Source of the DNA: Escherichia phage ECO26.1 3-1
DNA: 51,807 nt
Sequence record: OR844578
Reading direction: 5' to 3' (one strand)
The translations under genes were made by a program, and so were the position numbers. The notes under the pieces are model-generated. The model saw nothing but the letters and a program-made list of their open reading frames with translations. It searched no databases and was not told where the DNA came from. Positions 4,283 through 4,645 of this stretch are shown piece by piece. Position 1 is the stretch's first letter, and each line of letters starts with the position of its first letter.

Positions 4283-4645
4283 ATGAAAGCATATCAAATT
4301 CTTGAAGGCACACACAAAGGCACTATTTATTTTGAAGACGGTACTCAGGCCCGGATTATTGTCTCTAAGACTTTTAAAGAAGACGCTATTGTAGACCCGG
4401 AAATTTTCTACGGTTTGAATGCCCGTGAAATTGAAATTGAACATCAACCTAAAGTTAAAATTGAAGGTGGTCAACATCTGAACGTTAACGTTCTGCGTCG
4501 TGAAACTCTGGAAGATGCAGTTAAGCATCCGGAAAAATATCCGCAGCTGACCATTCGTGTATCCGGTTATGCAGTTCGCTTTAACTCTCTGACTCCGGAA
4601 CAGCAGCGCGACGTTATCGCTCGTACCTTTACTGAGGGTCTATAA
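4283..4645 (+). CDS. autonomous glycyl radical cofactor (GrcA/YfiD-like)
   Basis: C-terminal ~60 aa nearly identical to E. coli GrcA incl. glycyl radical motif RVSGYAVRF; RBS GAGG. Confidence 0.85.

Follow-up and report, generated by a model that had tools for sequence, protein, structure and literature searches.

A probable host-derived glycyl radical domain in the vs.6 gene of the T-even Escherichia phage ECO26.1 3-1

The gene at positions 4283-4645 in the genome of Escherichia phage ECO26.1 3-1 (record OR844578, whose whole stretch of 51,807 nucleotides (nt) is called the window below) is very probably the Mosigvirus ortholog of phage T4 vs.6, the gene of protein Y06I, and encodes an autonomous glycyl radical cofactor (GrcA) whose 3′ half was recently derived from the host. 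Comparisons with grcA of Escherichia coli and with related phage genes indicated that vs.6 is a two-age mosaic, in which an old phage-type 5′ half is joined to a recently host-derived radical domain. Within 50 kb of this virulent phage's genome, the host-like part is exactly one stretch of 175 nt, which corresponds to a single functional domain. The gene would thus offer a clean, if modestly interesting, natural example of domain-level recombination from a host to a lytic phage. In the searchable library we found no literature description of this nucleotide-level mosaic, although an earlier one may exist.

A host-identical tract in the 3′ half of vs.6

In the comparisons below, the module denotes 60 codons (4463-4642, 180 nt), and the host-identical tract denotes the 175 nt at 4461-4635. 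The tract agreed with E. coli grcA at 173 of 175 nt, and the last 60 residues of the encoded protein were identical to those of E. coli GrcA at 59 of 60 positions. By contrast, just 90 of the 180 aligned nucleotides of the 5′ half were identical to E. coli grcA (Fisher p = 3.7e-26 for the contrast with the 3′ module); identity to E. coli jumps from 50% in the 5′ half to 97% in the 3′ module across the left junction. Megablast recovered the tract at 98.3-98.9% identity in all 5,426 of 5,426 complete E. coli genomes, in every one at the chromosomal ung-grcA-eamB locus. In the same type of search with positions 1-25000 and 25001-50000 of the window against the 5,426 genomes, no E. coli-like DNA other than this tract came up, and the sole further alignment was that of the same tract to pflB, which was weaker (79.5%). 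A first-pass annotation of this DNA, made from the letters alone, had described a GrcA/YfiD homolog with a host-like 3′ half. Both descriptions held, the second more strongly than it had been put, and the nucleotide alignment to E. coli grcA, for which low identity had been named beforehand as the refuting outcome, gave 98.9%. The host-like part had been placed from about 4470 onwards; the tract itself stood, and its start had to be moved to 4461, with the end at 4635 and the last three codons phage-type.

The composition of the module also sets it apart from the phage. Its GC content is 48.9% against 36.9% for the whole window, and of 5,163 sliding 180-nt windows none is richer in GC, though some equal it. 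CTG accounts for 5 of its 6 Leu codons (11% phage-wide, in long open reading frames (ORFs)), and all 3 of its Pro codons are CCG (16% phage-wide), whereas the 5′ half, with a GC content of 36.1% and a GC content at third codon positions (GC3) of 0.28, is typical of the phage. The first-pass annotation had pointed to the GC richness and to the codons CTG, CGT and CCG; all of these were retained except CGT, which is not diagnostic of host origin because the phage itself prefers it (59%). Equally GC-rich 180-nt windows were found elsewhere only in 529-987 (a NUDIX hydrolase gene) and in 11887-12168 (a 93-amino-acid ORF with no Pfam match). The GC-rich windows near 601 and 11931 were considered as further host islands and rejected, having no E. 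coli match.

Synonymous sites were then compared between the two halves, with synonymous (dS) and nonsynonymous (dN) divergence calculated by the Nei-Gojobori method (Table 1). An identical 60-residue module protein is encoded in 12 other bacterial species, among which one Escherichia sp. differs from E. coli by 2 nt and the 11 non-Escherichia species by 13-28 nt, whereas the modules of the E. coli T-even phages lie only 1-6 nt from E. coli grcA. These counts therefore led us to reject protein constraint and codon convergence, and they point to the module as a recent copy of grcA from Escherichia. The modules of the T4-like phages Roth17 (Klebsiella), KP1LMA (Slopekvirus), Cronuts (Cronobacter), Kc304 (Winklervirus) and KaAlpha (Karamvirus) are subject to the same constraint on the protein and are nevertheless 29-47 nt away from E. 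coli. In a neighbor-joining tree of the module, the window, T4 and PYps32T were nested inside Escherichia with a bootstrap value of 0.975. The 3′ module thus appears, at the nucleotide level, to have been recently acquired from the host and not merely constrained. The first-pass annotation had left these two possibilities side by side for its chimeric gene, and the former was borne out (dS 0.05-0.12 in the phages, against 13-28 nt in bacteria with the same protein).

Table 1. Synonymous divergence (dS) of the two halves of grcA and vs.6
Comparison	dS, 5′ half	dS, 3′ module
Window vs E. coli	1.66 (saturated)	0.118 (tail included)
T4 vs E. coli	1.74	0.046
E. coli vs Escherichia sp.	0.067	0.045
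E. coli vs Citrobacter amalonaticus	0.57	0.36
E. coli vs Salmonella	0.80	1.02
E. coli vs Yersinia	2.75	1.36

The donor was identified as grcA and not pflB, since pflB reaches 79.5% nucleotide identity to the tract against 98.9% for grcA and differs in signature residues. Contamination or an assembly artefact was also rejected: the tract recurs across about 640 phage genomes that are independent of one another, T4 among them, and every E. coli carries it at the usual ung-grcA-eamB locus.

Analysis of the left junction showed that identity to E. coli begins at TTGAAGGTGGTCAACA, which encodes the start of the structured radical domain (EGGQHLN), and this motif is kept in all phage and host homologs. 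The junction lies within the conserved GAAGGTGGTCAACA, and a conserved motif of this kind would offer enough homology for crossing over. About 640 phage records share this left edge, which corresponds to position 199/200 of E. coli grcA. In the proposed mechanism, the 3′ module (4461-4635) would have been overwritten by homologous recombination with grcA of an Escherichia host, and the 5′ 180 nt would be old, phage-adapted and AT-rich. This 5′ half is a true, old GrcA homolog, one motif of which aligns with ARCIVAKAGFAED. It is conserved among T4-like phages (161 of 180 nt between the window and T4, dS 0.44), and its dN/dS of about 0.11 between phage genera indicated purifying selection.

On the right side, four of the six module differences between the window and E. 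coli sit in the last three codons, GAG GGT CTA, and no relationship between host and phage remains downstream of the stop codon. Among phages, the tail codons form a mosaic (GAA/GAG, AGC/AGT/GGT, CTG/TTG/CTA); the tail variants G173 and T176 are common to most phages of both genera, Tequatrovirus and Mosigvirus, and OES_C-2 is E. coli-like almost to the stop codon. Before the tail, phiE142, with a Mosigvirus 5′ half, and OES_C-2, with a Tequatrovirus 5′ half, are both identical to E. coli at 173 of 173 nt, and the internal module differences of the other phages are all lineage-specific singletons. The phylogeny is therefore star-shaped, with E. coli grcA in the place of the ancestor. A different situation was met in Tequatrovirus ES19 (MN508616.2; locus L090, 701-905), where a 158-nt out-of-frame deletion in vs.6 starts at the left junction and removes almost the whole host-like radical domain; vs.6 is a pseudogene in that isolate, or the deletion is an assembly error.

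The identity of the gene was supported by several searches. The protein matched the Pfam family Gly_radical (PF01228, E = 2e-18, residues 59-101) and contains the motif RVSGYAVRF. A phmmer search of PDB sequences retrieved E. coli YfiD (6owr, a nuclear magnetic resonance entry) with E = 6e-42 and pyruvate formate-lyase (PFL; 1h16, residues 696-758) with E = 8e-26, and among the PHROG families phrog_1209, the T4 vs.6 group, was matched over the full length (1.9e-62, residues 1-119). It is a stand-alone small protein (about 14 kDa class) whose ORF is bounded by neighbour genes on both sides, not a domain of a large enzyme. The ORF is 98.6-98.9% identical at the nucleotide level to the genes of the Mosigvirus phages phiE142 and moskry that carry the annotation 'autonomous glycyl radical cofactor'. 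The gene order denV-vs.8-vs.7-vs.6-vs.5-regB-vs-tk is common to the window, moskry and T4, and the surroundings are collinear with RB69-like phages; the window is a Mosigvirus, that is, an RB69-like T-even phage. In the T4 reference genome vs.6 is annotated as GrcA, Y06I being the older protein name. The same annotation is found in hundreds of T-even phage genomes, and at least 80% of the gene is covered in 746 phage records. The gene is thus already known, widely annotated and biochemically characterised in T4, which the first-pass annotation had overlooked.

The genes vs.8, vs.7, vs.6 and vs.5 are tightly packed, with stops and starts that touch or overlap in the ORF list. The Shine-Dalgarno-like sequence of vs.6 (Table 2) overlaps the stop codon of the upstream gene vs.7 (4274-4276), and the vs.6 stop codon TAA overlaps the ATG of vs.5 (4645-4869). 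A promoter and terminator scan of 3200-5200 was uninformative, with 7 promoter-like sites against 5.6 expected.

Table 2. Coordinates of vs.6, its parts and the anaerobic ribonucleotide reductase genes in the window
Feature	Position	Strand	Details
Phage GrcA, complete coding sequence (ortholog of T4 vs.6/Y06I)	4283..4645	+	120 amino acids plus stop; ORF list, Pfam
Phage-type 5′ half	4283..4462	+	90/180 nt to E. coli grcA; dS 1.66, dN 0.70
Host-identical tract, glycyl radical domain E61 (EGGQHLN...) to T117	4461..4635	+	173/175 nt vs E. coli grcA
Phage-type tail, codons GAG GGT CTA plus TAA; right junction	4636..4645	+	4/6 module differences from E. coli
Gly95 codon GGT, predicted radical site in RVSGYAV	4565..4567	+	computed position; alignment to 6owr and 1h16
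Shine-Dalgarno-like GAGG	4275..4278	+	4 nt upstream of ATG; read from sequence
nrdD, anaerobic ribonucleotide reductase	19941..21758	+	PF13597 4.6e-171; Gly_radical 1.8e-26
nrdG, NrdD activase	21755..22225	+	phrog_626 (anaerobic ribonucleotide reductase small subunit), 5e-72

Age, spread and direction of the transfer

About 640 Tequatrovirus and Mosigvirus genomes carry the host-identical module, and its age can be judged against the divergence of the two genera. Around the gene, about 4.2 kb of the window and T4 align at 77.6% identity, and the 5′ halves of their vs.6 genes differ with a dS of 0.44, whereas the modules agree at 173 of 180 nt with a dS of 0.12, most of it in the tail. The module should therefore be younger than the split of the two phage genera, and by these values far younger. 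It also appears to have been overwritten more recently than Escherichia split from Citrobacter and Salmonella. According to PMC6024577, Tequatrovirus and Mosigvirus are otherwise reported not to recombine (RB69 with T4). Within the 77.6% region, positions 7210-7479 (the tk.3/tk.2 area) are 97-100% identical to T4 and have no E. coli match; this segment looks like a patch of phage-to-phage recombination between Mosigvirus and Tequatrovirus.

A homolog of the gene is present in 1,522 phage records, among them T5-like and jumbo phages. Of 80 IMG/VR loci, those of the E. coli T-even group alone reached 174-178 of 180 nt to a host, and the rest peaked at 80-89%. The modules of Klebsiella phage Roth17 and Krischvirus E26 grouped with the Klebsiella/Salmonella clade and carry the LLDAVEH signature with the same codons. 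This grouping, which is approximate, hints at older, separate host-derived replacements.

These observations raised the possibility that the radical-domain half of vs.6 has been overwritten repeatedly from the current host, rather than replaced a single time in the ancestor of the E. coli T-even phages, a proposal that we hold only tentatively. The phage modules are polyphyletic on the bacterial tree though their 5′ halves belong to a single phage family: the modules of T4 and Mosigvirus group with Escherichia, those of Roth17 and Krischvirus E26 with Klebsiella/Salmonella, and those of Slopekvirus and Cronuts elsewhere. Furthermore, the Klebsiella phages have LLDAVEH with the same codons as the Klebsiella type, the E. 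coli phages have LEDAVKH, each E. coli-phage module is equally close to E. coli and to the other phage genus, and the right-end tails vary between phages. However, phages other than those of E. coli match their best hosts at no more than 80-89% (160 of 180 nt for Roth17), never with near-identity, in a host set that represented Klebsiella by species other than K. pneumoniae. Moreover, raw identity is confounded by composition, since AT-rich phages come out closer to AT-rich hosts (Gallibacterium, Haemophilus); the G173 and T176 tails common to both genera fit one event followed by phage-to-phage spread; and LLDAVEH is possibly ancestral, since PflB has LLDAMEN. Two candidates for further cases of such tracking were rejected. 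The Pasteurellaceae-like best matches of AT-rich phages were confounded by composition, and the locus L125 (145-597, IMGVR_UViG_2706794630_000006), although Yersinia-like at 164 of 180 nt, encodes a bacterial-type GrcA (MITGIQITKA...) and represents host DNA on a 'viral' contig.

In its strongest form, which is likewise possible but doubtful, the vs.6 radical half would be a recombination sink, repeatedly overwritten by the grcA allele of the current host, with the newest E. coli copy having swept through Tequatrovirus and Mosigvirus. If so, the 175-nt tract would be a rare, directly traceable record of ongoing exchange between a lytic phage that degrades host DNA and the host chromosome, and the repeated overwriting would keep a perfect fit to host PflB and PflA.

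More distant homologs showed other architectures. Two IMG/VR contigs of 151 kb and 85 kb (L135, 391-624, and L137) encode a short GrcA of 77 amino acids without most of the N-terminal region, like the NCBIfam families GrcA2/GrcA3, and their module is nearest to Pasteurellaceae grcA (151 of 180 nt). The GrcA homologs of the T5-like Demerecviridae phages S113 (L088, 315-683) and VEc33 (L094, 320-688) start with MKAYQ like the T4 type but are otherwise different in the N-terminal half, and in the radical module they reach only about 73% identity to any host. The S113 and VEc33 homologs suggest that the gene may be shared between phage families.

As to the direction of the recent replacement in the E. 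coli phages, the transfer appears to have run from host to phage. Near-identity by itself gives no direction, and the reverse event, in which E. coli took the 3′ half of grcA from a T-even phage, was examined on other grounds and found extremely unlikely. Both halves of E. coli grcA are congruently diverged from Escherichia sp., Citrobacter, Salmonella and Klebsiella, the E. coli module stands at its expected place in the enterobacterial tree, and every one of the 5,426 E. coli genomes has it at ung-grcA-eamB; in composition it resembles the host and is an extreme outlier within the phage.

The absence of any transfer, that is, an ancient phage grcA whose 3′ half stayed near-identical through extreme purifying selection on the protein together with convergent codon choice, would fit the extreme conservation of the radical domain in all GrcA and PflB sequences and the biased codons of the highly expressed grcA, but it has next to no probability left and is effectively refuted by the synonymous-site comparison: besides the counts for bacteria with the identical module, the phage shares even non-optimal codons of E. 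coli in the alignment (TAT, TTT, CAT, AAG, CAA), 30-47 positions separate Kc304, KaAlpha, KP1LMA and Cronuts from E. coli although the protein constraint is the same, and the GC content and codon usage of the module are foreign to the phage. RNA-level constraint was also rejected as a cause of the synonymous conservation, with no Rfam family or tRNA anywhere in the window and a fold z-score of -0.59 for the module.

Predicted function as a spare part

As reported in PMC8683613 and PMC13450708, Wagner et al. (2001) found that PFL activase gives a glycyl radical to E. coli YfiD and T4 Y06I alike, and that both proteins bind oxygen-cleaved PFL and restore its activity. Rescue of host PFL, which the first-pass annotation had put forward, is therefore established for the T4 ortholog (Wagner et al., 2001, as reported in PMC8683613). 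According to a 2026 review (PMC13450708), YfiD and Y06I are the only two validated spare parts of glycyl radical enzymes, and none is known for enzymes besides PFL; the N-terminal region aids the installation of the radical and is dispensable afterwards, and its function in YfiD is still called enigmatic. Nolan et al. (2006; PMC1524935) included the gene among those conserved in all the T4-like genomes of their comparison.

Because the window protein is 93% identical to that of T4 and its radical domain nearly identical to that of E. coli GrcA, the same mechanism is the best inference for it. The host radical-SAM activase PflA would put a radical on Gly95, which corresponds to G102 of E. coli GrcA and G734 of PflB in the alignments to 6owr and 1h16. 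The activated domain would then dock on host PFL whose C-terminal radical domain has been cut off by oxygen, and the flux from pyruvate to acetyl-CoA and formate would be restored. Fermentative ATP supply might in this way be sustained during infection in microaerobic habitats, after the phage shuts down host gene expression; a phage that shuts off host expression would presumably have to supply this consumable itself. Selection favours a radical domain that exactly matches host PflB and PflA. Two questions become testable, namely the exchange of DNA between such phages and the chromosome during infection, and phage-specific adaptation in the diverged N-terminal half, with its dN/dS of about 0.11.

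The first-pass annotation had further suggested that the product acts as a spare radical domain for the anaerobic ribonucleotide reductase NrdD of the same phage. The nrdD gene was found where it had been placed (Table 2), but a donation of the radical domain to oxygen-cleaved phage NrdD, in addition to PFL or instead of it, is very unlikely. Its attraction lies in the presence of nrdD and nrdG 15 kb away in the same phage, in a role in nucleotide metabolism speculated on by Nolan et al. (2006; PMC1524935), and in the view of Andorfer et al. (2021; PMC8683613) that spare parts for other glycyl radical enzymes are conceivable. However, BLASTP of the phage GrcA against the window NrdD revealed no similarity, the best hit having E = 6.3 and lying off the glycyl site, and the phmmer search of the PDB, which matched YfiD and PFL, returned no NrdD chain. 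The C-terminus of NrdD consists of a Cys4 zinc ribbon (CxxC...CxxC) followed by the loop RRTCGYLG, which is different from the GrcA loop. Moreover, the module is a 59/60 copy of a host protein whose only known client is PFL, so that selection points to PflB and PflA.

A related arrangement was observed in the Escherichia jumbo phage UE-S1 (ON568341.1; L095, 328-687), where a grcA-like gene with the PFL-type motif RVSGYAVRF sits between nrdD and nrdG, a synteny that would speak for NrdD as a client. The adjacent NrdD retains its own intact glycyl motif, RRVSGYLS, and shared anaerobic use is therefore the simpler reading of the synteny.

Several points weigh against the interpretation of vs.6 as a functional GrcA with a recently host-derived domain. 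The best NCBIfam model was TIGR04365 GrcA, to which the protein aligned over model positions 23-125 of 126 with 157.3 bits; this is below the equivalog cutoff of 170 bits (E. coli GrcA scores 233.9), a shortfall due to the diverged N-terminal 20 residues. The module tree was built on just 180 nt. One transfer followed by phage-to-phage spread has to be set against several independent transfers; the shared G173 and T176 favour one event and spread, and with the variable tails and the E. coli-like ends that are exact in OES_C-2 there is room for more than one. The deletion in ES19 implies that the gene may be dispensable under some conditions. Finally, both the function of this particular protein and its benefit to the phage in vivo are inferred.

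Comparison with known systems

The closest known counterpart is T4 vs.6/Y06I, which has the same position in denV-vs.8-vs.7-vs.6-vs.5-regB, the same length of 120 amino acids and the same left edge of the tract, and which agrees with the window gene at 334 of 360 nt over the coding codons. The two genes differ at 19 of 180 nt in the 5′ half, the window module has two private synonymous changes (C14T and C92T), and the tail reads EGL in the window and ESL in T4. The surrounding genomes are about 78% identical, the window being a Mosigvirus and T4 a Tequatrovirus.

E. coli GrcA (YfiD, 6owr) shares with the phage protein the radical domain (59 of 60 amino acids, 173 of 175 nt) with the same RVSGYAV loop, and homology extends across the whole protein, with phage residues 21-120 aligned to residues 27-127. 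On the other side, the phage protein is 7 residues shorter, the 5′ halves are only 50% identical at the nucleotide level with a dN of 0.70, and the window protein falls below the equivalog cutoff. Regulation of host grcA is FNR-dependent and acid-inducible, whereas the phage copy stands in a phage operon and is not under this host regulation.

The C-terminal glycyl radical domain of PflB (1h16, 696-758) is the domain that the spare part mimics and replaces, and it is similar enough to have been retrieved by phmmer (E = 8e-26). It differs from the window tract in its lower nucleotide identity (79.5%), in the signature, with MNREMLLDAMEN on one side of the comparison, and in K/Q/T against P/R/A downstream.

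The cyanophage psbA gene provides a parallel in another group of phages. Intragenic recombination between host and phage is known in this auxiliary metabolic gene, with host-like patches beside phage-like ones, and vs.6 resembles it as a phage copy of a host metabolic gene in which patches of host-like sequence and composition lie next to phage-like ones. T-even phages, for their part, modify cytosines and degrade host DNA. Compared with psbA, the case described here concerns a virulent enterobacterial T-even phage, and it involves a single, sharply bounded functional domain with essentially complete identity to the host.

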